A stretch of 36,337 nt of DNA from positions 1 to 36,337 of the IMG/VR virus record IMGVR_UViG_3300013947_000013, one strand, 5' to 3'. The notes under the pieces were generated by a model. It made no database searches. It worked only from the letters and a program-made list of their open reading frames with translations, and was not told where the DNA came from. Source of the stretch: a virus. The translations under genes and the position numbers were made by a program. Below, one piece after another: positions 1-27,955 of this stretch (positions are counted from its first letter, which is position 1; each line of letters starts with the position of its first letter).

Positions 1-77
1 GCATTTAATATTATGGAAAGAATGACACCTGAAGGTATGGTAAAATATGCTCAATCTGAATTATCTGAAGCTTATGA
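1..77 (+). repeat. Left copy of the 77-bp terminal overlap (identical to 36261..36337)
   Basis: Base-by-base comparison: gcatttaatattatggaaag...ttatctgaagcttatga occurs at both ends. Confidence 0.95.
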
Positions 78-2553
78 CAAAATGGTTAAGAATAAATCTA
101 AAGAATGGATAGATAAATATAGAAAAGACTTTGACTTAAAGCCTGATGAGGTAAAGTTTATCATGGATACAATGCAAGAAGTACAAAATATGGAAGATGG
201 CTATGATAAAAGAGTTAAACTTGCAGAAATACAAAAATTAATGACCGATAAACTGCCACCTGAAAAAGGTGCAAAAATTAGATCTTGGATGAGAATATCT
301 ATGCTGTTTAATCCTAAGACTCAAGTAAGAAATGTTGCTGGTAATGCTTTAATAATGCCAGTTAATTCTTTTGGCGATTTATTCTCTAGTTATGCTGATA
401 AGTTAATTGCTAAGAAAACTGGTGTAAGAACAACCGGCACTACTAATGTAAAAGCAATGCTTAAAGGTATTAAAAAAGGAGCCTATGAGGCTACTAACGA
501 CTATAAAAAAGGAATCAATACCAAAGATATGGAAGGCAATAGATTTGAAATATCAGATGGTAAATCATTTAGCGAAAAAAATTTAATGGGAAGGACTCTA
601 AATAGAACAGAGTCTTTATTAAATTATGTTATGGATGTCGGTGATAGAGTATTTAGTGAAGCGGCTTTTGAAAATTCATTACAAAACCAATTAGTATTAA
701 ACAATACTACCGAAATCACACAAGAAATGATAGATATAGCACATCAAGAGGCTTTATCTAGAACTTGGAATGATAATAATAACTATACCAGATTTGTTTT
801 GGGTGTAAGAAAAGGACTAAATAAATTAAATGTTAATGGTTATGGTCTTGGTGATATATTGATACCATTTGCCAAAACACCAGCTAATTTAACAAAGGCA
901 ATTGTTGATTATTCACCTGCCGGTTTGGTTAGTGCCATAAATAAAGGTATTAATTTAAAGAGGTCACTTGCAAATGGACAATACACTGCCACTATGCAAC
1001 ATGAATTTGTTCAAAGTTTAGGAAAGGCTACTGCTGGTACTATGTTATATATACTTGGTATTGCACTTGCGAAGGCTGGAATAACAAGCGGTGATAGTGA
1101 TGATGACAAAGATACTGCCAATTTCTTAAAAAATACTTTAGGAATTAATTCTTATTCAATTAAAATTGGTGGTAAGTCATTTACTTATGATTGGGCTCAA
1201 CCTTTGGCTGCTCCATTATCAATAACTGCTGATGTAGTTAATTCTAAAAGTAGCGATTCTAAAGCATTATTAGAAGGAATAGTCGGTTCCTTAGATAGTG
1301 CTGGAAGTATTTTGCTGGAGCAATCATTTTTGCAAAGTATAAATGATGTTCTTAATGATAATGATGGTGTTGTATCCGGAATTATTAATGAAATATTAGA
1401 ATTACCTGCTAGAGCAGTTCCTACTTTTTCTAAGCAAATAGCAGATTTAGTAGATGGTACTCAAAGAACTTCATTTGAATATGGAAAGCCAATTCAAAGC
1501 GCGGTAAATAGCATAAAGGCAAAAATACCTTTTGCAAGTAAAACTCTAAATCCTGTAGTAGATACTATGGGCAGAGAAATACAAAAATATGGTGGAAAGA
1601 ATAATATCTTTAATGTATTTTTAAATCCTGCCAATGTTAGCACAGAAAATATAAGTGAATCTGCTGAGGAAATATATAGGCTGTACAAAGAAACTGGAGA
1701 GACAGATGTTATGCCTAGAGTAGCCCCTTACTATATAAATCAAAAAGGCGAAAAGATTATGATGACAGGTAAAGATAGAGTTGAATATCAAAAAATATCT
1801 GGTGAAATAATAGAAGATAATATCAAAAAACTAATTAATAATGTATCTTATTCAAATATGTCCGATTCAGATAAGGCAAATGTTGTTAAAGATATAGTTA
1901 ATTATTCTTATAACATCGCCAAAAAGGATGTATTAGGATTAGAACTTTCTAATACATATCAAAAAGCATATGAATATTCTGAAATAGGAGATATAGGAGA
2001 TTATTATACATTTAAAGAAAGTATTGATAATACTGATAAAGATACCAAAAAGGCTAGTATAACTAAATTCTTGATAGATAGTGATTTGACTAATGAACAA
2101 TTAGCATATTTATATGGTAATTATTATTCAAGTGATAAAGTTTTAAATGCTTTGGTACAATCAAACATACCAATTAAAGAATACATAAAGTTTAATTCTG
2201 AAACATTTGAGAGTGATTATTATACAAATGGCAAGACTGTACCTAATTCTAGAAAAAATAAAGTGATTAAGTATATTAATAGTTTAAATCTTAGTATTCC
2301 TCAAAAAGCAATGCTTATTAAAATGGAATATAGTAGTTTTAAGCAATACGACAACCAAATAGTTAAATATGTTAATAATATTGATTGTTCTTCCTATGAT
2401 AAAAAAGTAATACTAAAGACTATCGGATTTACTAGTTATGATAAGGATATAATTAATACTATCAACTCTAAAAATATATCTGTTGAAGAAAAGGCCAAAG
2501 AGTTAGAAGAATTAGGTTTCAAAGTAAGAAATGGTAGGGTGTATACAAAATGA
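1..2553 (+). CDS. Giant polyvalent virion protein, C-terminal 850 codons (continuation of 31719..36260)
   Basis: Position 1 is in frame with the track ORF 13..2553, and codons 1-12 have no stop. 36261 is in frame with 31719 (4542 nt = 1514 codons). TGA at 2551-2553. The Met at 13 in the track is an internal residue. Confidence 0.9.
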   Translation, partial: AFNIMERMTPEGMVKYAQSELSEAYDKMVKNKSKEWIDKYRKDFDLKPDEVKFIMDTMQEVQNMEDGYDKRVKLAEIQKLMTDKLPPEKGAKIRSWMRISMLFNPKTQVRNVAGNALIMPVNSFGDLFSSYADKLIAKKTGVRTTGTTNVKAMLKGIKKGAYEATNDYKKGINTKDMEGNRFEISDGKSFSEKNLMGRTLNRTESLLNYVMDVGDRVFSEAAFENSLQNQLVLNNTTEITQEMIDIAHQEALSRTWNDNNNYTRFVLGVRKGLNKLNVNGYGLGDILIPFAKTPANLTKAIVDYSPAGLVSAINKGINLKRSLANGQYTATMQHEFVQSLGKATAGTMLYILGIALAKAGITSGDSDDDKDTANFLKNTLGINSYSIKIGGKSFTYDWAQPLAAPLSITADVVNSKSSDSKALLEGIVGSLDSAGSILLEQSFLQSINDVLNDNDGVVSGIINEILELPARAVPTFSKQIADLVDGTQRTSFEYGKPIQSAVNSIKAKIPFASKTLNPVVDTMGREIQKYGGKNNIFNVFLNPANVSTENISESAEEIYRLYKETGETDVMPRVAPYYINQKGEKIMMTGKDRVEYQKISGEIIEDNIKKLINNVSYSNMSDSDKANVVKDIVNYSYNIAKKDVLGLELSNTYQKAYEYSEIGDIGDYYTFKESIDNTDKDTKKASITKFLIDSDLTNEQLAYLYGNYYSSDKVLNALVQSNIPIKEYIKFNSETFESDYYTNGKTVPNSRKNKVIKYINSLNLSIPQKAMLIKMEYSSFKQYDNQIVKYVNNIDCSSYDKKVILKTIGFTSYDKDIINTINSKNISVEEKAKELEELGFKVRNGRVYTK

Positions 2554-3692: not shown

Positions 3693-5129
3693 ATGGCAAC
3701 ATTAACAACAAGTTTTCAAAAGTTAGGAGAAGCCTATATTGGTACATCCGGTGGTAGTTTATATGTAAGAATATATGCAAAGTATACAAAACAAGATATA
3801 GCAAACAATAGAACTTATGTAGTTTATGAAGCCAGAAGTTACTACGATAAAGCAAGTTATATATATGACCAACAAGGTAGTATTGGTGTAAGTGGAACAA
3901 GTGCTGATTATCAAAGTGCCGGATGTACTAGACCAACTGGTATAGGGGAAAGCGTATCTGTTTCTACTGAGGGTTGGGTATATCACAACAATGATGGAAC
4001 AAAGAGTATTAGTTGTGCTGCTTCAATTAGTTTTCCAAACTGGGGTTGGGGTAATACAGCATATGGCAGCGCAGACTTACCTAGAATACCAAGAGCCAGC
4101 GGTGTTGCTTGCAGTAGTCCTTACATTGGTGATAATGCCATCATTAGTATTGACAAAAAAGCATCATCATTTACAAGCAGAGTTACTTACAAGATTAAAA
4201 ATTTGGTGGGAAATATTGAAGATAAAACTAGTGAAACTACGATACAATTTAAAACCAGTGAAATAGAAGATAAAATATATGCATTAATACCTGATGCTAA
4301 AGAGATAAAAGGTAATATTTTGTGTACAACCTACAATGGTGATACACAAATCGGTGATACACAAGCTACAGAATTCAATTTATATGCTAAAGAAAGTGTG
4401 TGTAAGCCTGATGTAACCGCTACTATAGTTGATACTAATACAAGTGTTACGAGTATAACTGGCAGTAATACTAAATTTGTTAAGTATATATCTAAACCAA
4501 AAGTAACTGTATCTGCTACTGCTAAAAAGAGTTCAACAATTAAAAGTTATTCTATTAATTTGAATGATGGTCAAACTTCAAACTTACAAGAGAATACTTT
4601 TGATAGCATTGGCTCAAACAAAGTAACTGTATCTACTACTGATAGTAGAGGATATTCTAGTTCATCAGATGTTGAGTTAGATATGATTGATTACATTAAG
4701 TTACACATAAATACTATATCAATAACAAGACCAGAGGGTACTTCCAATGAGGCTATTTTAAATTGCAATGGTGCATATTACAATGGTTCATTTACTGATA
4801 CTACTGCTAATACTCTTAGTGGTAGTTTTAAATATAGAAAATCAGGAACTACTGACTGGATTGATGGTGGAAGTATAATTCCTACTATTACTGATAATAC
4901 ATTCAAAATAGCCAATTTATCACTGGGGTCTTCTTTTAATTATGAGGAAGAATATCAATTTGAAATATCATTTGAAGATAAGTTCGTTATTGCTAAAGAA
5001 GTTGTATCTTTGGAAAAAGGTAGAGAAACTATTTTTGTTGGCGATAACAAAGTTTATGTATATGGTAGTGCATATTTAAATGATTATCCAATTCTTTACT
5101 TCACTGAAGAAGAGGAATGGGAAGAATAG
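3693..5129 (+). CDS. Tail / receptor-binding structural protein
   Basis: 478-aa ORF 4 nt after the previous stop. Ser/Thr-rich, beta-type composition with an internal repeated KVTVS(A/T)T segment. Assigned by position. Confidence 0.5.
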   Translation: MATLTTSFQKLGEAYIGTSGGSLYVRIYAKYTKQDIANNRTYVVYEARSYYDKASYIYDQQGSIGVSGTSADYQSAGCTRPTGIGESVSVSTEGWVYHNNDGTKSISCAASISFPNWGWGNTAYGSADLPRIPRASGVACSSPYIGDNAIISIDKKASSFTSRVTYKIKNLVGNIEDKTSETTIQFKTSEIEDKIYALIPDAKEIKGNILCTTYNGDTQIGDTQATEFNLYAKESVCKPDVTATIVDTNTSVTSITGSNTKFVKYISKPKVTVSATAKKSSTIKSYSINLNDGQTSNLQENTFDSIGSNKVTVSTTDSRGYSSSSDVELDMIDYIKLHINTISITRPEGTSNEAILNCNGAYYNGSFTDTTANTLSGSFKYRKSGTTDWIDGGSIIPTITDNTFKIANLSLGSSFNYEEEYQFEISFEDKFVIAKEVVSLEKGRETIFVGDNKVYVYGSAYLNDYPILYFTEEEEWEE

Positions 5130-8021: not shown

Positions 8022-8189
8022 ATGGTTGAAAAAAGAATAAATGATAAAGATATTATTTATAGATTAACAAGAAGAAAAGATAATATTTTAATTATTAAAT
8101 ATAATATGAGGAATAAAAGAGCATGGTTTCAAACCAATAGCATGCCAAAAAGAAAAGCTATAGATATTAACAGAGTAGTTAACCTATAG
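8022..8189 (+). CDS. Small basic protein (55 aa), autonomous moron unit
   Basis: SD GAGGGG (8011-8016), ATG 8022, TAG 8187-8189. Own promoter and own terminator. Below the track cutoff. Confidence 0.55.
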   Translation: MVEKRINDKDIIYRLTRRKDNILIIKYNMRNKRAWFQTNSMPKRKAIDINRVVNL

Positions 8190-8256: not shown

Positions 8257-8535
8257 GTGAAAGTAACTTTTAAAATTGAGAATGACTTAACTCATTGCTC
8301 TTATGAAAATTGTAAAAATAATTCTGCTGTATATTATTCTTTCGATGGTAGAGAAAAACATCTTTGCAGAAAGCATTTTAATGATGAGATTGATGCTTTA
8401 AATAAACAGAGCATAGAGACTAATGTTGATGAGATTAATAATTATTTTTCAAAAGTTAAAAAACAGAAAAACAGACCAAAAAATTCTTGTTTAAATCAGT
8501 CTGATTTCAATGATTATTCTCATTATCTTAAATAA
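8257..8535 (+). CDS. Hypothetical Cys/His-containing accessory protein (GTG start)
   Basis: SD GAAGGTG before GTG 8257. HCSYENC...LCRKH suggests a small zinc-binding motif. The 3' end overlaps the convergent gene by 13 nt. Confidence 0.45.
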   Translation: MKVTFKIENDLTHCSYENCKNNSAVYYSFDGREKHLCRKHFNDEIDALNKQSIETNVDEINNYFSKVKKQKNRPKNSCLNQSDFNDYSHYLK

Positions 8536-9119
8536 TTTTTTCTAAATGCCTTAATAAACTCTTCTCTAGAGCCAATATTTTCTTCCCAGTATAATTGTCC
8601 TTGCTTGTGCCAATAATCATTAAATATGGGATTATTTTGATTGCTAGAATGGCATTCTCTGCATAATGGTAAGATGAAATTATATTTGATGGAGTTAATT
8701 CTATTGCGACCTCCGAAAACTTCGTGAAGGTCGTTTTTCTTTTTACCACATAAATAGCAGTGCTCTAAATCTTCAGTAAAGATAGATTTTCTATTTCTTT
8801 CTAAACTCGCTAGTTTATTTGATTTGTTTTTCATTTTTGCTGGCTTTTGTTGTTTTTTTGCCAATGTTTGTGAATGTTTTCTTATTTGATTGTTATTTGA
8901 TTTTTGTTGTCCGCTTGTAACCAGACTTTTTTTGTCAGAAGTGGACTTTTTTCGTTTTATCTCTGCAGAACACTGTTTTTTTTTGCAAAGGTCTGCAGAG
9001 ATTTTCTTATATTCTTTATTATCACATTCCCTACAAAGGGAAAATGTTATTTCTTTATTTAGTAATTTACAATATGGTTTATTCTTTCTTTTCTTTAAGT
9101 TTATACAATAGTTCTTCAT
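8523..9119 (-). CDS. Zinc-ribbon / HNH-like protein with NinG(Rap)-like architecture
   Basis: SD AGGAG before the ATG. N-terminal CxxxC...CRECDNKEY, a long K/S/Q-rich basic linker, and C-terminal CYLCGKKKNDLHEVFGGRNR...LPLCRECH. Confidence 0.4.
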   Translation of the reverse strand: MKNYCINLKKRKNKPYCKLLNKEITFSLCRECDNKEYKKISADLCKKKQCSAEIKRKKSTSDKKSLVTSGQQKSNNNQIRKHSQTLAKKQQKPAKMKNKSNKLASLERNRKSIFTEDLEHCYLCGKKKNDLHEVFGGRNRINSIKYNFILPLCRECHSSNQNNPIFNDYWHKQGQLYWEENIGSREEFIKAFRKNYLR

Positions 9120-9180
9120 TATTAATTTCTCCTATTCTATAGGAAAAAAGTTTGTATAAAATTGTGTGTTGTTAATAACC

Positions 9181-9200
9181 GTAGCATACTGGTAGCATAC
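9181..9200 (+). repeat. Left arm-type repeats: 2 x GTAGCATAC, 11-bp phasing
   Basis: Copies at 9181-9189 and 9192-9200, in the same orientation as the right-hand set. Confidence 0.6.
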
Positions 9201-9239
9201 AAATCGTTTGTAATTCCTTTAAATTATGCACTTGCTATA

Positions 9240-9287
9240 TGGCTGTTAACCGATAGGTCGTAGGTTCGAGCCCTACATTGGCCGCCA
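9240..9287 (+). other. attP core: 3' half of a tRNA-Asn(GUU) gene (anticodon loop to CCA)
   Basis: CTGTTAA loop (GTT at 9245-9247), CCGAT, variable AGGTC, T-arm GTAGG-TTCGAGC-CCTAC, acceptor ATTGGCC, discriminator G, CCA. There is no matching 5' acceptor or D-arm upstream, so this is a fragment and not a gene. Confidence 0.75.
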
Positions 9288-9300
9288 TTTAGATAATTAA

Positions 9301-9334
9301 CAAACCCTTTAAATATAAGGGTTTGTTTTATTTT
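9301..9334 (+). terminator. Intrinsic terminator downstream of the tRNA fragment
   Basis: CAAACCCTT / AAGGGTTTG stem, 7-nt loop, then TTTTATTTT. Confidence 0.65.
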
Positions 9335-9389
9335 ACTTGTTTTTGATATATTTTTGTAATTCTTGTGGAATTGTCTGATTATAACAACG

Positions 9390-9420
9390 GTAGCATACAA
9401 GTAGCATACAAGTAGCATAC
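9390..9420 (+). repeat. Right arm-type repeats: 3 x GTAGCATAC, 11-bp phasing
   Basis: Copies at 9390-9398, 9401-9409 and 9412-9420. Directly adjacent to the integrase 3' end. Confidence 0.6.
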
Positions 9421-9435
9421 ACAAACTTTTAATTC

Positions 9436-10509
9436 CTAATATTTAATTTTTTCAATTTCTTTTTTTAACTCTTCTATAGTTTTGTGAATATAAACATTGT
9501 TGGTAACATCATTTGATAAACTATGGCCTAATAATCTTTTAATAATTACATCAGGTATTCCTACGGAAGAACACTCTGTTGCAAAAGTATGTCTTGTGTC
9601 GTAAGCAGTATGTTTCATTTTGTTTTCTTCCATAAATTGTTCAAATCTTTTTTTATATGTGTCATATGTCATTTTTTTATTGGTACTTTCATTTATAATT
9701 AAATATTTTTGTCCTTTGTTTTTATTATATATTTTTTCAATTAATGGTTTAATTTTTGAATGGATTGGTATTATTCTGTTTCTACCTGCTTCTGTTTTTT
9801 CTCCACCAATCATATAATTATCTTCTATAAATACATTTTTTTGCTCTATATTGAGCAATTCACTTGGCCGTAGTCCTGTAAATAGGTAAATTACAATTAG
9901 TTCTGCTATGGGACTAAAAATGGCCTTTTCTTTGATTATTTCGATTTCTGTTTTGCTAAATGGAATATGCTTGTTTGATTTTTCCTTTTTTCCTACTTCT
10001 AATTCGCATATTGCTTTATTGATATTTAGTTCCAATTCATCAATTGAATAGTCAATTATTCTTTGAAATGTATTTTTTATGTATCCTCTACCAGTATGTT
10101 TTAATCCTGAATTATTTATAATATTTTGAACATCTTTCTTTTTGAGTTCCAGTATTTTTTGATTTTTAAGTTTTATTAAATGATTGTTGTAAACAGAAAG
10201 CATATTCTTATAATTACTTTTTGACATTTTATTATTTAAGTACATTTCTTTTAATTTTGGTTCTAATTTATCGAATACTTCTCCTAATGTTATATTTTTA
10301 TTTTCTATGTTAAATGGTACATTGTTATATTCTAGTAGCTTTTGATAGGCTTTGTTATAAGTCTCTTCATATGCTATATATTTTTTTATTTGTTTTCCCT
10401 CATTGTCCCAGCCTATTGTTTTTAAAGCACCCCACGGTTTCCTTCTATTTTCACCTAAATAGACTATTGATCCAAATCCATTTGGTAATTTCATTTTTTT
10501 TCTTTTCAT
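9436..10509 (-). CDS. int: Tyrosine integrase
   Basis: TGLRPSEL (Arg I), RHTFAT, LLGHS, and the Tyr in NNVYIH. Adjacent to attP. Confidence 0.9.
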   Translation of the reverse strand: MKRKKMKLPNGFGSIVYLGENRRKPWGALKTIGWDNEGKQIKKYIAYEETYNKAYQKLLEYNNVPFNIENKNITLGEVFDKLEPKLKEMYLNNKMSKSNYKNMLSVYNNHLIKLKNQKILELKKKDVQNIINNSGLKHTGRGYIKNTFQRIIDYSIDELELNINKAICELEVGKKEKSNKHIPFSKTEIEIIKEKAIFSPIAELIVIYLFTGLRPSELLNIEQKNVFIEDNYMIGGEKTEAGRNRIIPIHSKIKPLIEKIYNKNKGQKYLIINESTNKKMTYDTYKKRFEQFMEENKMKHTAYDTRHTFATECSSVGIPDVIIKRLLGHSLSNDVTNNVYIHKTIEELKKEIEKIKY

Positions 10510-10525
10510 TTTTTATCACTCCTTA

Positions 10526-10554
10526 TTGCATTTTGTTTATTTATTTGCTATAAT
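10526..10554 (+). promoter_or_regulatory. Sigma-A type promoter, TTGCAT-17-TATAAT with TGC directly upstream of the -10, pointing away from int
   Basis: TTGCAT 10526-10531, 17-nt spacer, TATAAT 10549-10554. Very similar to the promoter at 7970. Confidence 0.6.
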
Positions 10555-10560
10555 TGGAGT

Positions 10561-10655
10561 ATGTAAAAAAGAATTGTCTTTGGTTGGACTAATTTAATTT
10601 TACATACACTTTTTATAGTGTTTGAGTCGGTGTTGGTAGCACTGGCTCTTTTTTT
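10561..10655 (+). ncRNA. Candidate ~95-nt structured small RNA (three hairpins, the last an intrinsic terminator)
   Basis: Hairpin 1: ATGTAAAA / TTTTACAT (10561-10568 / 10598-10605). Hairpin 2: ACACT / AGTGT (10606-10621). Hairpin 3: GAGTCGGTG / CACTGGCTC (10624-10648) plus a T7 run (10649-10655). There is no ORF (ATG is followed directly by TAA). Confidence 0.45.
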
Positions 10656-10836
10656 ATTTATTTGAATTTTGATATTTTATATAATAATAAAATCCTATAC
10701 ATAATAAAATGATATTTAATATTAATAACCAATTTTCTTTAAATATAAAATGATCATTGTTTACTATTAATGCTCCTATTAAAAAAATATATGCTAGTAT
10801 AATAATTCCATTTAAAATATCTTTTAATTTTTCCAT
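10654..10836 (-). CDS. Small two-TM membrane protein co-transcribed with the repressor
   Basis: 60 aa with two hydrophobic helices. Starts 6 nt after the repressor stop. Confidence 0.6.
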   Translation of the reverse strand: MEKLKDILNGIIILAYIFLIGALIVNNDHFIFKENWLLILNIILLCIGFYYYIKYQNSNK

Positions 10837-10842
10837 AATCTA

Positions 10843-11643
10843 TCAACTTTCTATTTCTGATATATATTTTTCATATAAAGGTGAATTTGTAAAATTATTC
10901 CATTCTTTTAAATATTCTTTATAATTATTATCTAATATTTGTTTTAGCATATTTGAATTATTATTAATAAAATCATTAATATTGTCAAGTTCATTTTCTT
11001 TTAAAAGCCTTCCTTTTTTTATTAAGTTTAAGGAAATTAATGTATCATATAATTTTTTTATATTTGAGTAACTATTTAAATCAAAATCCATTTCTGCTTC
11101 TGTATTAGGTTGATATTCAAAATCTAATTTTAATAGTGAATATATATTTTCAGATACTTTATTTAAAATGTTTTCTTGATTTTTTAAATCATTACTAAGT
11201 TCTTTCCATTCTTTTTTTGAAATGTTTAACATAGTCTTTTTTTTAGGATTGTTTTTAATCCAATTTTGTATATGTTGTTTAATATTATTATAGGTTAACT
11301 CTTTATTATCATCAGTTTTAATATTTAAAAATATATCTTCTACAATTTCTATTGGTAAATTAAATTCATTACTTATTTTATTCAAAGTATTTTCGACTTC
11401 ACTACCAAAAGTGAACTCTTTTTTTGATTCTTCAATAGATGCTATTTTTCTTTTATTTAATAGATCATCTATTGATATATTTAAAGAATTGCATATTCTA
11501 ATAATATTTTCTACATTTGAATTATCTATACCTCTTTTTAATATACTATCTACGGTGGTATAAGGAATATTAATTTTAATAGAAAATTGTCTTACTGAAC
11601 CATACTTTTCGATTATCATTTCTTTTATTTTTTCTTCTAACAT
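10843..11643 (-). CDS. XRE-family HTH repressor (CI-like), 266 aa
   Basis: HTH in GSVRQFSIKINIPYTTVDSILKRG. SD AGGAGG lies 7 nt before ATG 11643. The longer track ORF (to 11754) would run through the promoter/operator region. Confidence 0.75.
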   Translation of the reverse strand: MLEEKIKEMIIEKYGSVRQFSIKINIPYTTVDSILKRGIDNSNVENIIRICNSLNISIDDLLNKRKIASIEESKKEFTFGSEVENTLNKISNEFNLPIEIVEDIFLNIKTDDNKELTYNNIKQHIQNWIKNNPKKKTMLNISKKEWKELSNDLKNQENILNKVSENIYSLLKLDFEYQPNTEAEMDFDLNSYSNIKKLYDTLISLNLIKKGRLLKENELDNINDFINNNSNMLKQILDNNYKEYLKEWNNFTNSPLYEKYISEIES

Positions 11644-11664
11644 AGTTTCCCTCCTTACATATAT

Positions 11665-11693
11665 ATTATAATATATAAAATACGAAAAATCAA
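11665..11693 (-). promoter_or_regulatory. Leftward repressor promoter, TTGATT-17-TATAAT
   Basis: On the minus strand: TTGATT (11693-11688), 17-nt spacer, TATAAT (11670-11665). Overlapped by operator O1. Confidence 0.5.
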
Positions 11694-11809
11694 ATATTTT
11701 TTTTAAAATACTAAAAAGCATATTGACAATATATGAAAAATCGTATATAATCATATTGTAGTCAGAAAATTAAATATTTTTTTTAAAGACTACATACGAA
11801 AAATCGTAT
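11680..11809. promoter_or_regulatory. Three 16-bp operators, consensus ATACGA-AAAA-TCGTAT
   Basis: O1 11680-11695 ATACGAAAAATCAAAT. O2 11731-11746 ATATGAAAAATCGTAT. O3 11794-11809 ATACGAAAAATCGTAT (perfect palindrome). Confidence 0.65.
11723..11751 (+). promoter_or_regulatory. Rightward early promoter, consensus TTGACA-17-TATAAT
   Basis: TTGACA 11723-11728, TATAAT 11746-11751. O2 lies in the spacer. Confidence 0.7.
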
Positions 11810-11829
11810 ATAATAGGAGGTGAGATTAA

Positions 11830-12036
11830 ATGGTTCAATTAAAAGATGTTTTAAAAGAAGCAAATATAACTCAATTAGATATTGCTAACGAATTAGGAAT
11901 ACGATCTTTAAGTACAGTAAATCAAAAGTTGAATAATAAAAGTGATTTTACTGTAAAAGAAGCAAAAATTTTAATAGAACTTATAAGAAAAAAGACTTCT
12001 AAAAAATATCGTGTTGAAGAATTATTTCAAGAGTAA
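11830..12036 (+). CDS. Cro-like HTH regulator
   Basis: SD AGGAGGTG. 68 aa. HTH in ITQLDIANELGIRSLSTVNQKLN. Divergent from the repressor. Confidence 0.65.
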   Translation: MVQLKDVLKEANITQLDIANELGIRSLSTVNQKLNNKSDFTVKEAKILIELIRKKTSKKYRVEELFQE

Positions 12037-12069
12037 AAATCCAACCAAAGACAAAAAAAGGAGAAGTGT

Positions 12070-12294
12070 ATGGAAAAATTAAAAGAAATGAAAACTATTC
12101 CTATACCAATAGTTGCTGACTTACTAGGTAAGACTCAACAATATGTAAGAATAGGATTGCAGCAACAACGACTACCAATCGGAAGCGCTGTAAAAATGTC
12201 ATCAGAGTGGACTTATCATATATCATATGAGTTACTAAAAAATTATATTGGGGAAGAAAGGATAGTAAAATATGAAAACGAAAGTCAATTATAA
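12070..12294 (+). CDS. Small HTH DNA-binding protein (excisionase- or regulator-like)
   Basis: SD AAGGAG (12058-12063). IVADLLGKTQQYVRIGLQQQRLP resembles MerR/Xis-type HTH proteins. Confidence 0.45.
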   Translation: MEKLKEMKTIPIPIVADLLGKTQQYVRIGLQQQRLPIGSAVKMSSEWTYHISYELLKNYIGEERIVKYENESQL

Positions 12295-12511
12295 AAATGT
12301 TTTGAAACTTGTTATATTAATATTTTGTCTTGGTGTTATTATTCATGATATGTATATGTTACTAATTTATCCTTTAATATCAAAGACTTTAACACAATTT
12401 ACTCTTTATGGTTTTTTAACATTTGTATTATCTATGTATATATCTTTAAATATCTTTTATCAAATAAAAAATGTGTCTAACACTGGAACTGTTAAACACA
12501 CAGATAAATAA
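12272..12511 (+). CDS. Small membrane protein
   Basis: 79 aa with two hydrophobic helices. Confidence 0.5.
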   Translation: MKTKVNYKNVLKLVILIFCLGVIIHDMYMLLIYPLISKTLTQFTLYGFLTFVLSMYISLNIFYQIKNVSNTGTVKHTDK

Positions 12512-12572
12512 TTTGTATCAATTATTTACTATTAAAGTATAACACTTTTTATAGTAAAAATCAAATGGAAAA

Positions 12573-13991
12573 ATGAAAATAAAAAATACGATATTAGATA
12601 CATTTAAAGATTATGAGTTTTTTGATAGCACTCACACTTATTTCTATAAAGGAAATAGAGTGACTATTAGTACCACAGGTCTTATACACCAATATTCAAA
12701 TGAATTTGATAAATGGGAAATGTCAGCTAATGTAGCTCGTAAAAGAGGAGTTAGTCAAATAGATGTACTGAAAGAGTGGAAAATTGAAAACTTGCATAGT
12801 ACCATCAAAGGATCAATGATTCATGAGTTTGCACAAAGCCTGTGGGAAGGCAAAGATTATATATTCAAATATGATAATTTACCTGATGTTATTAACAAAA
12901 GAAGATTACAAGAAGAATTATGCAATATGAGTAGGCAAGCCATTAATTTCTACAATGATTATAAAGATATGTATGAATTAATAGGCTGTGAAATATATCT
13001 TGGAGTGCCTGATTATGATGAATGTGGTGCTACGGATATGTTACTTATGAATAAGTTTACAAATGAACTTTTAGTAATTGATTTTAAGAGTAATAAAAAA
13101 ATTGATTATGAAAGTTTCGGACATAAAAAAATGAAAGTTCCTTTACAAAAATATGAAGATTGTAATTATATACATTACTCACTTCAATTGAATGCTTATG
13201 CTTATAAAATTGAGTATATGACAGGAATAAAAGTAAAGGACAAGTTACTAATTTATTTTGATTGTAACAAAGATAACTATGAGGTTATTGAGCCTCTAGA
13301 ACTTCGTAAAGAAGTTATTGAAATATATGAAAATAGGAGAGTGAAAAATATGAATAGTGTACCAGTACTATTAATTGGTAAAAGTGGAAGTGGAAAATCT
13401 GCTTCAATGAGAAATTTTAAGAAAGAAGAAATAGCAATAGTAAATGTTTTGGGTAAACCATTACCATTTAAAAATGATTTAAAGGCACCTAAATGTGATG
13501 ATTATAAAACTATTTTAGCAGCTATTACAAAAACTGATAAAAAGACAATTGTAATAGATGATGCTAACTATCTTATTACAAATGAGTTTATGGCTAAATC
13601 AAGTATAAAAGGTTTTGATAAGTATAATGAGTTAGCCAATAACTTTTGGAATCTTATACAAGGAATTAAGGCTATCGATGGTGGCAAAACAGTTTACCTT
13701 ATAATGCACGAAGATTGTGATGATGATGGAAATGTAAAACCTAAAACAATAGGCAAACTATTGGATGATAAAGTAAATGTGCAAGGAATGTTTACTGTAT
13801 GTATTAGAAGTATGTTTGAAAATGGAAATTATGTATTTAAACTTAAAACAAATGGTCAAGACTGTGTTAAGACACCAATTGGTATGTTTGATGTTGAAGA
13901 GATAGAAAACGATTTAAAGAAAGTCGATGAAATAGTTAGAGATTATTATGATTTAGATAAAAAAGAAAGTGAGGAAACAAATAATGAATGA
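12573..13991 (+). CDS. Fusion protein: PD-(D/E)xK exonuclease domain plus P-loop (Sak4/AAA_24-like) ATPase domain
   Basis: N-terminal half: GSMIHEF, ATDMLL, VIDFKSNKK, YSLQLNAYAY (QxxxY). C-terminal half: LLIGKSGSGKS (Walker A) and IVIDDANY (Walker B). An internal SD-like GGAGAG sits before Met codon 13350. Confidence 0.6.
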   Translation: MKIKNTILDTFKDYEFFDSTHTYFYKGNRVTISTTGLIHQYSNEFDKWEMSANVARKRGVSQIDVLKEWKIENLHSTIKGSMIHEFAQSLWEGKDYIFKYDNLPDVINKRRLQEELCNMSRQAINFYNDYKDMYELIGCEIYLGVPDYDECGATDMLLMNKFTNELLVIDFKSNKKIDYESFGHKKMKVPLQKYEDCNYIHYSLQLNAYAYKIEYMTGIKVKDKLLIYFDCNKDNYEVIEPLELRKEVIEIYENRRVKNMNSVPVLLIGKSGSGKSASMRNFKKEEIAIVNVLGKPLPFKNDLKAPKCDDYKTILAAITKTDKKTIVIDDANYLITNEFMAKSSIKGFDKYNELANNFWNLIQGIKAIDGGKTVYLIMHEDCDDDGNVKPKTIGKLLDDKVNVQGMFTVCIRSMFENGNYVFKLKTNGQDCVKTPIGMFDVEEIENDLKKVDEIVRDYYDLDKKESEETNNE

Positions 13992-21478: not shown

Positions 21479-21833
21479 GTATACAATGATATTGTGATAA
21501 TATATAGTTCACATATTATACCTCACACTACCTATTAGTAGGTAGTATACTGATAATATATAAAAAGCGCGGGTTGAAAGTTAAGGTTAATTTGCTTTTA
21601 ATATCACTATAAAAATCAAAGTACAAGATTAGTGGTTACTTTCAAGAGAGTTAGGTTGAGTATGGCCAACAAAACACCTATAAATACCTTTATATTATTA
21701 GTATAGTACTTACTAATACGAGATTACATACCTCCTTTACTCTATTAAATGATATTTATCTTTTTCATTTAGTATGTAATCAGAATATGGATACACTAGT
21801 GTCTTTTTATTATGTAAAAAAGGGTTGATTAGT

Positions 21834-21965
21834 ATGAACTATAAAAAGTGTATGAAGAATAATACTTGCAAAACTTGTAGTGATTATTTGTTTTGTAAAG
21901 AAGAAACACCAAAAAGGGGTAAAAAGAAAAACAAGAAGGCAAACTTGTATAAAAATAGGAAGTGA
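21834..21965 (+). CDS. Possible 43-aa Cys-rich basic micro-protein
   Basis: CMKNNTCKTCSDYLFC followed by a K-rich tail. The SD is weak. Its stop overlaps the terS start region. Confidence 0.3.
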   Translation: MNYKKCMKNNTCKTCSDYLFCKEETPKRGKKKNKKANLYKNRK

Positions 21966-27880: not shown

Positions 27881-27955
27881 TGCCATATGGTGAAGTGGTA
27901 ACACATTGCACTTTGACTGCAACATTCCCTAGTTCGAATCTAGGTATGGCAACCA
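27881..27955 (+). tRNA. tRNA-Gln (anticodon UUG), 75 nt with encoded CCA
   Basis: Acceptor TGCCATA / TATGGCA (U1:A72). D-arm GTG-AAGTGGTAA-CAC. Anticodon arm TTGCA-CTTTGAC-TGCAA. Variable loop CATTC. T-arm CCTAG-TTCGAAT-CTAGG. Then A-CCA. Confidence 0.9.

Follow-up and report, generated by a model that had tools for sequence, protein, structure and literature searches.

The window, as we call the whole stretch of 36,337 nt analysed here, is a temperate phage of an uncultured gut Bacilli/"Mollicutes" host. Beside its integrase gene (int) lies a gene for a small RNA (sRNA), the seed of which is complementary to a site next to the Shine-Dalgarno (SD) sequence of an early gene. We describe the anatomy of this sRNA gene, the conservation of the unit in related prophages and the covariation of seed and target. 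The best explanation, to which we assign a probability of about 0.7, is that the int-linked sRNA pairs beside the SD and blocks translation of a probable excisionase; expression, repression, the identity of the target as a recombination directionality factor (RDF) and the biological role are inferred. Most likely, a trans-acting antisense sRNA represses translation of an excisionase-like gene and gates excision, or serves as an immunity determinant resembling the c4 RNA of phages P1/P7, or does both, with expression and direction again being inferences. As a way of controlling prophage behaviour through RNA, the pairing appears not to have been described before.

An sRNA gene beside int and its complementary site

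The tyrosine integrase gene (PF00589; 9436 to 10509, minus strand) is the constant neighbour of the sRNA gene. Directly upstream of its start codon at 10509 we read a divergent promoter (10526 to 10554, plus strand) that consists of the -35 element TTGCAT (10526 to 10531), a 17-nt spacer and the extended -10 element TGcTATAAT (10546 to 10554). Because the -35 element matches the consensus at only 3 of 6 positions, this promoter was missed by a simple promoter scan. The candidate sRNA of ~95-99 nt (10557 to 10655, plus strand), which is supported by its hairpins, its terminator and a covariance model (R1, see below), comprises hairpin 1 (10559 to 10607), the small hairpin 2 (10608 to 10619) and a terminator stem-loop (10624 to 10648) that was found by scan and is followed by a run of seven T residues (10649 to 10655). 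Its fold has a minimum free energy of −31.5 kcal/mol (z = −6.0 versus shuffles). With its own promoter, stable structure and intrinsic terminator, the gene is predicted to be an independent transcription unit. No Rfam family matched the sRNA at gathering score when the window was searched, and a search of 10450 to 10750 against Rfam even at E ≤ 10 returned no c4 and only chance-level L20_leader and AniS matches; the sRNA represents an RNA family absent from Rfam.

A hydrophobic 60-aa ORF (10654 to 10836, minus strand) is convergent with the sRNA gene and ends at its terminator. The ORF is small and membrane-like and the two 3′ ends would overlap, as would fit a type I toxin-antitoxin system with the sRNA as antitoxin of the 60-aa protein. 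This reading is scarcely tenable and was rejected on the data from relatives: gene callers did not call the ORF in near-identical contigs, and in the related lineages L139, L140 and L142 (handles with L denote relatives throughout) the neighbour is replaced by unrelated genes, encoding a 153-aa DUF3862/BLIP, a 75-aa and a 152-aa DUF4429/SHOCT protein, while the sRNA is kept.

Because the sRNA gene fills the position upstream of int, an int promoter, if there is any, must overlap it. The sRNA might consequently act in cis on int, either through transcriptional interference or by antisense pairing with the int leader, and the 15-nt match in trans described below would then be secondary. In favour of this, int and the sRNA are always linked, 17 nt separate the -35 box of the sRNA from the start codon of int, and the 15-mer of the target would also be present in a minus-strand int leader. 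However, a promoter scan detected no minus-strand promoter in 10510 to 10660, and action in cis leaves unexplained why a site that tracks the loop is found 1-2.8 kb away at the SD of a gene of the same family in at least 15 lineages; we consider it improbable.

The seed (10574 to 10588, plus strand) comprises the 5′ arm of the upper stem of hairpin 1, the complete 6-nt loop (UUGGUU, 10580 to 10585) and 3 nt of the 3′ arm. Re-reading of the DNA confirmed the claim of the sequence-only reading that the seed TTGTCTTTGGTTGGA is the exact reverse complement of TCCAACCAAAGACAA at 12040 to 12054, and the positions that it had given for both 15-mers, for the stop codon TAA of the preceding cro-like gene (12034 to 12036), for the SD AAGGAG (12058 to 12063) and for the ATG at 12070 are all correct. 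The complementary match is exactly 15 nt long, without extension at either end. The target site (12040 to 12054, plus strand) is part of the early transcript, separated by 3 nt from the cro-like stop codon and by 3 nt from the SD. The early promoter (11723 to 11751) is a perfect sigma-70 consensus, and the first gene of the operon encodes the cro-like protein (11830 to 12036, plus strand), which has weak matches to HTH_3/HTH_19 and to PHROG transcriptional-repressor families. The sRNA gene lies ~1.4 kb from the target site on the far side of the gene for a CI-like repressor of 266 aa (HTH_26; 10843 to 11643, minus strand), the operators of which, TA(C/T)GAAAAATCGTATATAAT, are unlike the paired 15-mers in sequence. 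An energy of about −23 to −24 kcal/mol is predicted for the 15-bp duplex of sRNA and target. Little structure is predicted for the target region; the seed is partly base-paired within hairpin 1, which would have to open before pairing.

The sequence-only reading had held that six G/C positions make a chance match unlikely. This was not borne out, because an inverted repeat of at least 15 nt with at least 6 G/C was present in 15% of 300 dinucleotide-preserving shuffles of the whole window, and the argument from composition is not significant alone. Inverted runs of at least 15 nt numbered 12 in the window versus 5.6 ± 2.2 expected from shuffles. For the sRNA alone, we counted complementary matches of at least 15 nt to the plus strand of the remaining window, of which the real sRNA has two; dinucleotide-shuffled versions of 10557 to 10648 had at least one in 1.9% and at least two in 0.05% of 2000 trials. 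The corresponding values for real 92-nt windows from the same minus-coded module were 17% and 1.6%, and the T-rich composition of this module complements that of the rest of the window, which is A-rich. The second match (21838 to 21854) was rejected as a pairing site for lack of support: when the L225 lineage was examined for covariation, it had neither the 43-aa ORF nor a match of at least 10 nt. The proof that the predicted pairing exceeds chance is comparative and does not come from window statistics.

A conserved unit with covarying seed and target

The relatives are metagenomic contigs of uncultured hosts for which there are no transcript data. BLAST of 9400 to 12600 against GenBank phages yielded distant integrase similarity only and no relative, the integrase as a single-protein query on IMG/VR identified one distant locus, and exact 14- and 15-mer scans of IMG/VR gave, among the matches listed, only single chance ones. 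The near-identical relatives L121-L138 (98-100% identity) keep both partners and are too close to be informative, their sole variation being the length of the A-run after the target.

The unit of promoter, hairpin and terminator is present, divergent beside int, in at least 15 related prophages of gut Bacilli/"Mollicutes", the integrases of which share 37-77% identity. It lies 40-60 nt upstream of the homologous int genes on the opposite strand and is conserved beside int in every examined relative that still carries the unit. In L139, L140, L142, L225, L226, L399, L401 and L405, the int SD is followed by TTGC/TTTACA, ~17 nt, TG-n-TATAAT, 5-6 nt and GAGTA; the promoter of L419 is similar, but ATGATAAAAT and GTAAGTA replace TG-n-TATAAT and GAGTA. 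An RNAalifold analysis of 12 lineages found compensatory changes in 10 of 20 consensus pairs, and U-G pairs of the sRNA would be A-C mismatches on the opposite strand, so only the plus strand fits. The covariance model R1 matches exactly the sRNA span with 95 bits and has one match per related locus, always adjacent and opposite to int; elsewhere in 1.6 Mb, it found nothing further at E ≤ 0.1. On this comparative evidence, the RNA gene is real.

Because both partners change together in related phages, we conclude that the pairing is under selection. The seed retains a 5′ UUGUC across lineages, and its loop part varies and covaries with the target. Equivalents of the target site that complement the cognate sRNA occur in L139, L140, L142, L145, L149, L150, L225, L226, L228/229, L230, L236, L399, L401, L405 and L419, so loop and target change together in at least 15 lineages. 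Directly 5′ of SD and start codon, the longest runs complementary to the 190 nt upstream of int measure 13 nt in L139, L140 and L419, 14 nt in L145, L230 and L399, 16 nt in L405, 18 nt in L225, 21 and 13 nt in L150, 22 nt in L149, 27 nt in L228/229 and 28 nt in L236. The weakest cases are L226, where the 11-nt site is tied with two other 11-nt runs, L401, where the longest match is an 11-nt run, and L142, where only duplex prediction and inspection of the sequence revealed the 10-nt site. Sites lie 1-2.8 kb from the sRNA, and the genes behind them are homologues of the 74-aa protein encoded at 12070, except in L230, where the site abuts the ORF directly upstream of the homologue and not the homologue itself. 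L398 and L402 have a clear sRNA without a match of at least 10 nt at the ribosome-binding region of the homologue, and the L171 sRNA matches two other gene leaders instead. Within the integrase coding region, GC-rich 11-nt matches in L463 and L472 and one of 10 nt in L398 were dismissed as chance.

RNAduplex applied to long regions gave uninformative long-range duplexes, and perfect-run and anchored-pair counts were used instead. Cognate sRNA and target regions share runs of 10-28 nt (mean 16.6) versus a non-cognate median of 9. For the anchored count, regions were aligned on the conserved GUC/GAC and Watson-Crick pairs were counted in 15 variable positions, which gave 9-13 pairs for cognate combinations and a mean of 5.8 for non-cognate ones. 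When targets were permuted among 11 lineages, none of 100,000 permutations reached the observed pairing total. Complementarity to the translation initiation region of the target is, as judged from these lineages, kept through compensatory change. Conservation of both partners in relatives, a check named by the sequence-only reading, bears out its proposal: a plus-strand sRNA that pairs in trans immediately 5′ of the SD at the 12070 gene is supported by the conserved unit, the U-G pairs and the covariation.

Two further readings were rejected on the same data. Chance complementarity in an AT-rich genome could draw on the 15% frequency of comparable repeats in shuffled windows and on the opposed T- and A-rich compositions, but it is refuted by the covariation, by the permutation result and by the fixed position at the SD, which leave it a practically negligible probability. 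The 15-mers could also be DNA sites, an inverted pair bound by a phage protein (a regulator, Int at arm-type sites, or Xis) for looping or recombination; the cI-cro module is flanked by the inverted copies, which change along with it. Against this very unlikely reading, one copy invariably occupies the apical loop of a hairpin between promoter and terminator, its counterpart on the same strand is in every case at an SD, a range of match lengths from 10 to 28 nt would be odd for a protein site, the pairing extensions include G-U positions, the repressor operators differ in sequence, and attP is on the opposite side of int from the sRNA gene.

The target gene and the proposed role of the pairing

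The target gene (12070 to 12294, plus strand) encodes a 74-aa protein with a predicted winged-helix fold that belongs to phrog_6058, a family of unknown function. The protein had no match reaching threshold in Pfam and NCBIfam. Its AF2 model (pLDDT 91) has the topology H-H-beta-beta-H-H and fits best to a PDB chain of the Pukovnik Xis (4j2n; probability 0.93, rmsd 2.7 Å over 52 columns), with an E value of 0.17 that is not significant; Foldseek returned no match for the model at E ≤ 0.001, and a profile of the family found nothing among PDB sequences. Weak HTH_17 (PF12728) matches occur in 10 of 45 family members (best E 0.035). The homologue of L227, which is part of an xis-int tandem, scores 27.5 bits against HTH_17 (cut-off 27), and the Idris homologue is annotated as putative Xis, with 23 bits for TIGR01764 being below the cut-off of 28.8. 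Homologues are located in tandem just upstream of int in L227, L156 and L169, divergent from int within ~100-400 nt in L196, L241, L242, L231 and L247-251, and just downstream of int in L195. In the sRNA-bearing clade, the target gene is remote from int and is linked to it through the int-adjacent sRNA. Because homologues adjoin integrases and one reaches the HTH_17 cut-off, the protein is probably an excisionase (RDF), in agreement with the Xis- or regulator-like HTH protein suggested from the sequence alone; this identity is inferred.

According to our proposal, an RNA of ~95 nt would be made from an independent gene between int and the lysogeny genes, with transcription leading away from int. 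Through the apical part of hairpin 1, this RNA would pair over 15 nt with the early (cro-side) transcript, probably starting at the 6-nt loop and spreading into the upper stem. Because the position beside the SD falls inside the 30S footprint, the duplex should block translation initiation; it could also be a substrate of a double-strand RNase, most clearly in relatives with duplexes of 21-35 bp. Repression and activation cannot be distinguished from sequence, and we infer repression; the brake on early genes in the lysogen suggested by the sequence-only reading, whether through repressed translation or through RNase cleavage, is likewise an inference. Leaky or early transcription from the lytic promoter would then yield no excisionase-like protein until the early mRNA outnumbers the sRNA after induction, and the integrase would act without a directionality factor during establishment and maintenance of lysogeny. 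The ORF that follows and overlaps the end of the target gene (12272 to 12511) would probably be silenced along with it.

The same pairing could also confer RNA immunity of the P1/P7 c4 kind, whereby the sRNA shuts off the early operon of the resident phage and of incoming relatives through the second gene and polarity, and loop and target define immunity specificity. This and excision control differ in role alone and are not mutually exclusive. Immunity is favoured by the diversification of loop and target against a conserved background of sRNA scaffold, SD and target coding sequence, which is the pattern expected under selection to escape cross-reaction; the sRNAs of the window and L140 have near-identical scaffolds and differ substantially in the loop alone. 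Phages with non-homologous repressors at the CI position (124 aa in L139, 232 aa in L140 and 130 aa in L142) also have different seeds, and polarity is plausible because of the overlapping ORF at 12272. On the other hand, the phage already has a protein repressor and operators for it, the target is consistently an Xis-like gene and not cro or a replication gene, a block of excisionase would not stop the lytic growth of an incoming phage, and the sRNA is linked to int and not to the repressor module. We regard an immunity role as possible but rather unlikely. More tentatively than the translational block itself, and at somewhat below even odds, we suggest for excision control that the RNA sets the directionality of recombination: in a family of such phages, the int-linked sRNA would silence a remote excisionase gene, and its short seed, re-matched time and again after exchange of the intervening repressor and cro, would also define hetero-immunity or compatibility groups among co-infecting relatives.

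Comparison with known systems and implications

The c4 RNA and its target derive from one transcript, from which c4 is processed, and two c4 loops pair with two sites before icd/ant. The c4 RNA acts in addition to a protein repressor, and the specificity of the system derives from matched changes in RNA and target between related phages. The sRNA described here is likewise a short structured phage RNA with a loop that pairs at an early-gene ribosome-binding region in the presence of a protein repressor, and related phages again differ by matched RNA and target changes. The likeness to c4 (RF01695) is one of working and not of family membership: the RF01695 covariance model matched the sRNA neither in sequence nor in structure. 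Unlike c4, the present RNA has its own promoter and terminator (10526 to 10554 and 10624 to 10655) apart from the early promoter, lies beside int, pairs mainly at one site, has an Xis-like target and belongs to phages of low-GC Bacilli.

The P4 CI RNA arises by cleavage from the leader of the operon under its control and causes premature termination, and the P22 sar RNA is a cis-antisense RNA that overlaps ant. Both resemble our sRNA as small phage RNAs that restrain lytic or anti-repressor functions by base pairing, but the present RNA is trans-encoded and has limited complementarity (10-28 nt). In PMC12197685, the c4 antisense RNA of P1/P7 (immI; Citron & Schuster 1990) and the P22 sar RNA are both cited.

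The RCd1 sRNA of Clostridioides difficile has been proposed to lower the RDF CD1234, which partners a serine recombinase, and hence excision of the skin element; RCd1 is host-encoded, binds Hfq and also targets spoIIID, and its effect on CD1234 may be indirect (PMC8583004). Both sRNAs are thus proposed to reduce RDF output and excision of an integrated prophage-like element. Unlike RCd1, the present RNA is encoded by the element itself, lies beside a tyrosine integrase and coevolves with its target.

In lambda, sib acts in cis as an RNase III site in the 3′ region of int, and the OOP RNA is antisense to cII in cis. As proposed for our system, a temperate phage thereby controls its Int/Xis balance or a lysis-lysogeny regulator after transcription, but the present system is a trans-acting seed-target pair. 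The plasmid copy-number systems CopA/CopT and RNAI/RNAII control replication through cis-antisense transcripts of full complementarity. Pairing that starts at the loop of a stable hairpin ('kissing'), with new specificity groups arising by loop changes, is a common feature, whereas the target of the present RNA lies in trans, in the early operon of a phage.

Accounts of how temperate phages regulate their excision usually invoke transcription and protein stability. If the directionality factor were gated by an sRNA, a threshold device would be added, with Xis being made only when the early mRNA exceeds the sRNA, and this would explain how integration is possible at all for phages that have xis within the lytic operon. 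The seed/target series is a clean case of RNA-RNA coevolution, and its at least 10 different matched pairs on a near-constant scaffold would amount to ready-made orthogonal RNA repressors. The work adds a new RNA family from abundant but uncultured human and animal gut bacteria and provides a first functional handle on phrog_6058. If the more tentative reading is true, in which the RNA sets directionality and the seed also defines specificity groups, these phages would have the first sRNA-RDF circuit encoded by an element itself and, outside Proteobacteria, the first specificity system of the c4 kind.

The phage and its candidate RNA gene

At about 36 kb, the window comprises a complete temperate phage, whose genes are also carried by an ENA contig of 36,315 bp; host flanks in other contigs place the element directly past gatCAB. 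The integrase gene int (9436-10509), a 60-aa hydrophobic ORF (10654-10836) and the CI-like repressor gene (10843-11643) are located on the minus strand. On the plus strand follow a perfect sigma-70 consensus promoter (11723-11751), the cro-like gene (11830-12036), the gene for a 74-aa protein (12070-12294), a 79-aa ORF that overlaps its end, and replication genes.

The candidate RNA gene lies between int and the 60-aa ORF. Reading the plus strand, we found a -35 box TTGCAT (10526-10531), a 17-nt spacer, an extended -10 element TGcTATAAT (10546-10554), hairpin 1 (10559-10607) with the 6-nt loop UUGGUU inside the putative seed, the small hairpin 2 (10608-10619), and a terminator (10624-10648) followed by T7. 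The predicted fold has -31.5 kcal/mol (z = -6.0 versus shuffles), and no Rfam family matched the RNA even at E <= 10. For 12 RNAs from relatives, RNAalifold predicted the lower stem of hairpin 1 and the terminator, with compensatory changes in 10 of 20 pairs; several U-G pairs would become A-C mismatches on the opposite strand. A covariance model built from these aligned RNAs matched once per related locus, each time adjacent to int and on the strand opposite to it, with no further matches at E <= 0.1 in 1.6 Mb and none in more distant Firmicutes prophages. Judged by its conserved structure, the RNA gene is real, its expression being inferred without transcript data. A role as type I antitoxin to the 60-aa ORF was rejected, since the ORF is not kept alongside the RNA in relatives.

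Several further features of the phage were recorded. The cI-cro intergenic region contains two direct copies of TA(C/T)GAAAAATCGTATATAAT (11732-11751 and 11795-11814), each including the palindrome-like ACGAAAAATCGT and a TATAAT, the first overlapping the consensus promoter; they are unrelated to the 15-mer described below and resemble early promoters arranged in tandem and combined with repressor operators. An 18-nt inverted repeat joins 10820-10837 and 12069-12086. The 60-aa ORF (minus strand), which diverged relatives lack, and the 74-aa gene (plus strand) open with identical UAUGGAAAAAUUAAAAGA, and both proteins start MEKLK, which could reflect past recombination or merely chance, the genome being AT-rich. 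A tRNA-Gln (UUG) gene (27881-27955) lies within the structural/late region. Comparison with a near-identical contig shows that the ORF opening the window (13-2553) covers the C-terminal portion of a 2364-aa protein, unusually large for a phage, with LPD23 and ART-PolyVal (ADP-ribosyltransferase-like) domains. Because the prophage is inserted directly downstream of gatB of the gatCAB operon in metagenomic contigs L122, L124 and L132-L135, attP is predicted in 9120-9435, its core being unmapped; a terminator-like hairpin (9299-9327) lies there, between int and an HNH-like ORF.

Complementarity and covariation of seed and target

The seed at 10574-10588 (TTGTCTTTGGTTGGA) is the exact reverse complement of 12040-12054 (TCCAACCAAAGACAA) over 15 nt, without extension on either side. 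This target begins 3 nt past the last base of the cro-like stop TAA (12034-12036), and the SD AAGGAG (12058-12063) starts 3 nt past its end, ahead of the ATG at 12070. The sequence-only reading had reported this match, which we reproduced in sequence and coordinates, and had argued that its GC content made chance uncommon; that argument is weak on its own, since in this window of 28% G+C an inverted run of at least 15 nt with at least 6 G/C was present in 15% of whole-window dinucleotide shuffles. Inverted runs of at least 15 nt numbered 12, compared with 5.6 +/- 2.2 in the shuffles, and most have one arm in the minus-coded block 8500-11750, which is T-rich on the plus strand and hence compositionally complementary to the remaining window. 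Given the shuffle frequency and this skew, composition alone is insufficient to support the finding. Restricting the test to the candidate RNA gave a stronger result: shuffled versions of 10557-10648 had a complementary match of at least 15 nt elsewhere in 1.9% of trials and two in 0.05%, while real 92-nt windows from the block had one in 17% and two in 1.6%. The actual RNA has two, 12040-12054 and a 17-mer at 21838-21854.

In the latter, 10603-10619 (CATACACTTTTTATAGT), comprising the 3' arm of hairpin 1 and hairpin 2, is perfectly complementary to a site starting 2 nt past the ATG (21834) of an uncalled 43-aa Cys-rich basic ORF, the first ORF ahead of terS (21962). Both partners are kept in the near-identical L133 and L137. 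Because L499, of the L225 lineage, has neither the ORF nor a match of at least 10 nt upstream of terS/terL, this pairing has no covariation support. A direct 12/13 copy of the RNA 5' end (TATGTAAAAAAG) lies at 21811-21822.

Contigs with identical Cro-like or 74-aa proteins were 98-100% identical in both regions and hence uninformative; they keep both partners, and only the A-run after the target varies in length. Related prophage loci L139, L140 and L142, reached via integrase homologues of 61-77% identity, carry the same promoter-hairpin-terminator unit, placed upstream of int in opposite orientation, but with another loop. An integrase-profile scan of GTDB genomes and IMG/VR (integrases 37-58% identical) and a scan of metagenome contigs with the 74-aa family added L145, L149, L150, L171, L225, L226, L228/229, L230, L236, L398, L399, L401, L402, L405 and L419. 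The carrier genomes are MAGs labelled uncultured Bacilli, Mollicutes, Tenericutes or Mycoplasmatota.

For each locus, the longest complementary run was sought between the 190 nt upstream of int and same-strand DNA further on, or, for some loci, starting from the leader of the 74-aa homologue. The top match was located directly 5' of an SD and start codon, ending 9-27 nt ahead of the latter, and measured 11 nt (L401), 13 nt (L139, L140, L419), 14 nt (L145, L230, L399), 16 nt (L405), 18 nt (L225), 22 nt (L149), 27 nt (L228/229), 28 nt (L236), or 21 + 13 nt separated by one mismatch (L150). Weaker cases were L226, whose 11-nt site is equalled by two other 11-nt runs, and L142, whose 10-nt site (UGUCGUGUGA / UCACACGACA) was seen only by duplex prediction and sequence reading. 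The gene 3' of the site encodes a homologue of the 74-aa protein, except in L230, where a 76-aa ORF intervenes directly before the homologue.

Seed and target read UUGUCUUUGGUUGGA / UCCAACCAAAGACAA in the window, UUGUCUGUCGCAA / UUGCGACAGACAA in L140, UUGUCUGUAGUGG / CCACUACAGACAA in L419, UUGUCUAGCCGACAUUUU / AAAAUGUCGGCUAGACAA in L225, UUUGUUUGUGGUUAAA / UUUAACCACAAACAAA in L405 and UCGUGGUAGAUUU / AAAUCUACCACGA in L139; conservation covers GACAA on the SD-proximal side and its partner UUGUC, and the distal portion, the loop, is variable. Cognate regions share 10-28 nt of complementarity (mean 16.6) versus a non-cognate median of 9, and form 9-13 Watson-Crick pairs over 15 variable positions anchored on GUC/GAC, versus a non-cognate mean of 5.8. 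When targets were permuted among 11 lineages, 0 of 100,000 permutations reached the observed pairing total; after removal of near-duplicates 1 of 100,000 did, probably the identity permutation itself. This covariation indicates that the pairing is under selection and excludes chance complementarity. Conservation of both partners, the check proposed by the sequence-only reading, was therefore borne out, and its proposal of trans pairing with the early mRNA gained support. The homology breakpoint sits within the target, which suggests that each cro-module exchange brought new sequence beside GACAA, to which the loop was afterwards re-matched.

If the 15-mers were instead DNA sites for a protein, their positions in a hairpin loop and beside an SD and the 10-28 nt spread of match lengths would remain unexplained, and the separate operator sequence between cI and cro also speaks against this. 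A cis effect on int, for which any promoter must overlap the RNA gene, likely coexists with trans pairing but cannot explain the trans covariation.

Some loci deviate from this pattern. L398 and L402 have a clear sRNA adjoining int (1491-1575 and 4651-4711, respectively), yet the leader of their 74-aa homologue offers no match of at least 10 nt; loss or switching of the target is possible. A 12-nt match occurs at 3905 in L398, and a 10-nt match 6 nt upstream of the SD of another gene (locus 7181) in L402. In L171, the seed matches two other leaders over 17 and 12 nt (rc coordinates 8068-8084 and 10120-10131), which front a cro-like and a membrane-protein gene, not the Xis-like gene, and share a repeat of about 40 nt, GCTGGAACAC-N-TAAAT-CATACACGAATA-N-GGAAGGAG. 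L146-148 have the sRNA and no 74-aa homologue within the available sequence. L139 also has a second site of 10 nt, TGCTGGAACA, which lies 7 nt upstream of its main target and is complementary to the terminator loop UGUUCCAGCA; this is a hint of two-loop pairing by analogy with c4, the antisense RNA of phages P1/P7.

The target protein

The 74-aa protein matched no Pfam or NCBIfam model and belongs to phrog_6058, of unknown function. Its homologues share the motif Q-F-V-R-I-G-L-Q-x-x-x-L-P-x-G-S-A-V ... W-x-Y, and AlphaFold2 with 45 homologues gave a confident small winged-helix model (pLDDT 91). Foldseek returned no significant match for this model; the best geometric fit was Xis of mycobacteriophage Pukovnik (4j2n; rmsd 2.7 A over 52 columns, probability 0.93, E 0.17), and MerR-type winged helices were also among the non-significant fits. 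In other Firmicutes prophages, homologues directly adjoin int, in a xis-int tandem (L227, L156, L169), divergently within 100-400 nt (L196, L241, L242, L231, L247-251) or just downstream (L195). The Xis- or HTH-like nature first proposed for the product is supported by the L227 homologue, which passes the HTH_17 gathering score (27.5 versus 27 bits); weak HTH_17 matches occur in 10 of 45 family members, and the homologue of Butyrivibrio phage Idris is annotated 'putative Xis' (TIGR01764, 23 bits, below the cut-off of 28.8). The protein is thus probably an excisionase, or recombination directionality factor (RDF), an identity inferred rather than demonstrated that we hold with only somewhat better than even confidence.

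Mechanism and biological role

At the level of sequence, the analysis establishes an int-linked RNA gene of conserved structure whose seed coevolves with an SD-abutting site of one gene family on the same strand. By analogy with c4, CopA and similar RNAs, pairing is inferred to start at the loop, and a duplex of 13-28 bp ending 3-20 nt from the SD, inside the 30S footprint, would block initiation; RNase III might additionally cleave the longer duplexes seen in the L149 group. The 15-bp duplex is predicted at about -23 to -24 kcal/mol versus -16.9 for hairpin 1, with the target region open. Translation of the ORF at 12272 may be coupled to that of the target gene, with which it overlaps.

Two roles, not mutually exclusive, fit the data. 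The int-linked sRNA may gate the RDF, permitting integration and preventing spurious excision until induction brings early mRNA in great excess; xis of this clade lies in the lytic operon behind cro and would therefore be transcribed from the onset of infection and on promoter leak. The constant int-sRNA-xis triad around non-homologous repressors (266, 232, 124 and 130 aa) favours RDF gating. In the second role, the sRNA would be a c4-like determinant of immunity or compatibility, for which the loop-only difference between the window and L140 on a near-identical scaffold and the seed diversity are evidence. The original observation is confirmed and its interpretation supported, with repression inferred. 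Weaknesses are the lack of expression data, an uncultured host, the few lineages without a match, and a target function that is inferred only.

P1/P7 c4 is closest in logic, but the candidate has no match to RF01695, is not a member of that family and differs from c4 in carrying a separate promoter and terminator rather than arising by processing of the target transcript. The only precedent found in the literature for sRNA control of an RDF is RCd1, a host-encoded, Hfq-bound sRNA that acts on CD1234 of the C. difficile skin element (PMC8583004). The phage sRNAs named in a 2025 review are c4, sar and OOP, with nothing resembling an int-linked sRNA/xis pair (PMC12197685), and no published report of such a system was found. 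Phage trans-antisense regulators are known; the RNA family, its location and the class of target are new. As far as comparative evidence reaches, the 15-mer is the most conspicuous part of a conserved sRNA-mRNA pair whose members coevolve across a clade of gut prophages.
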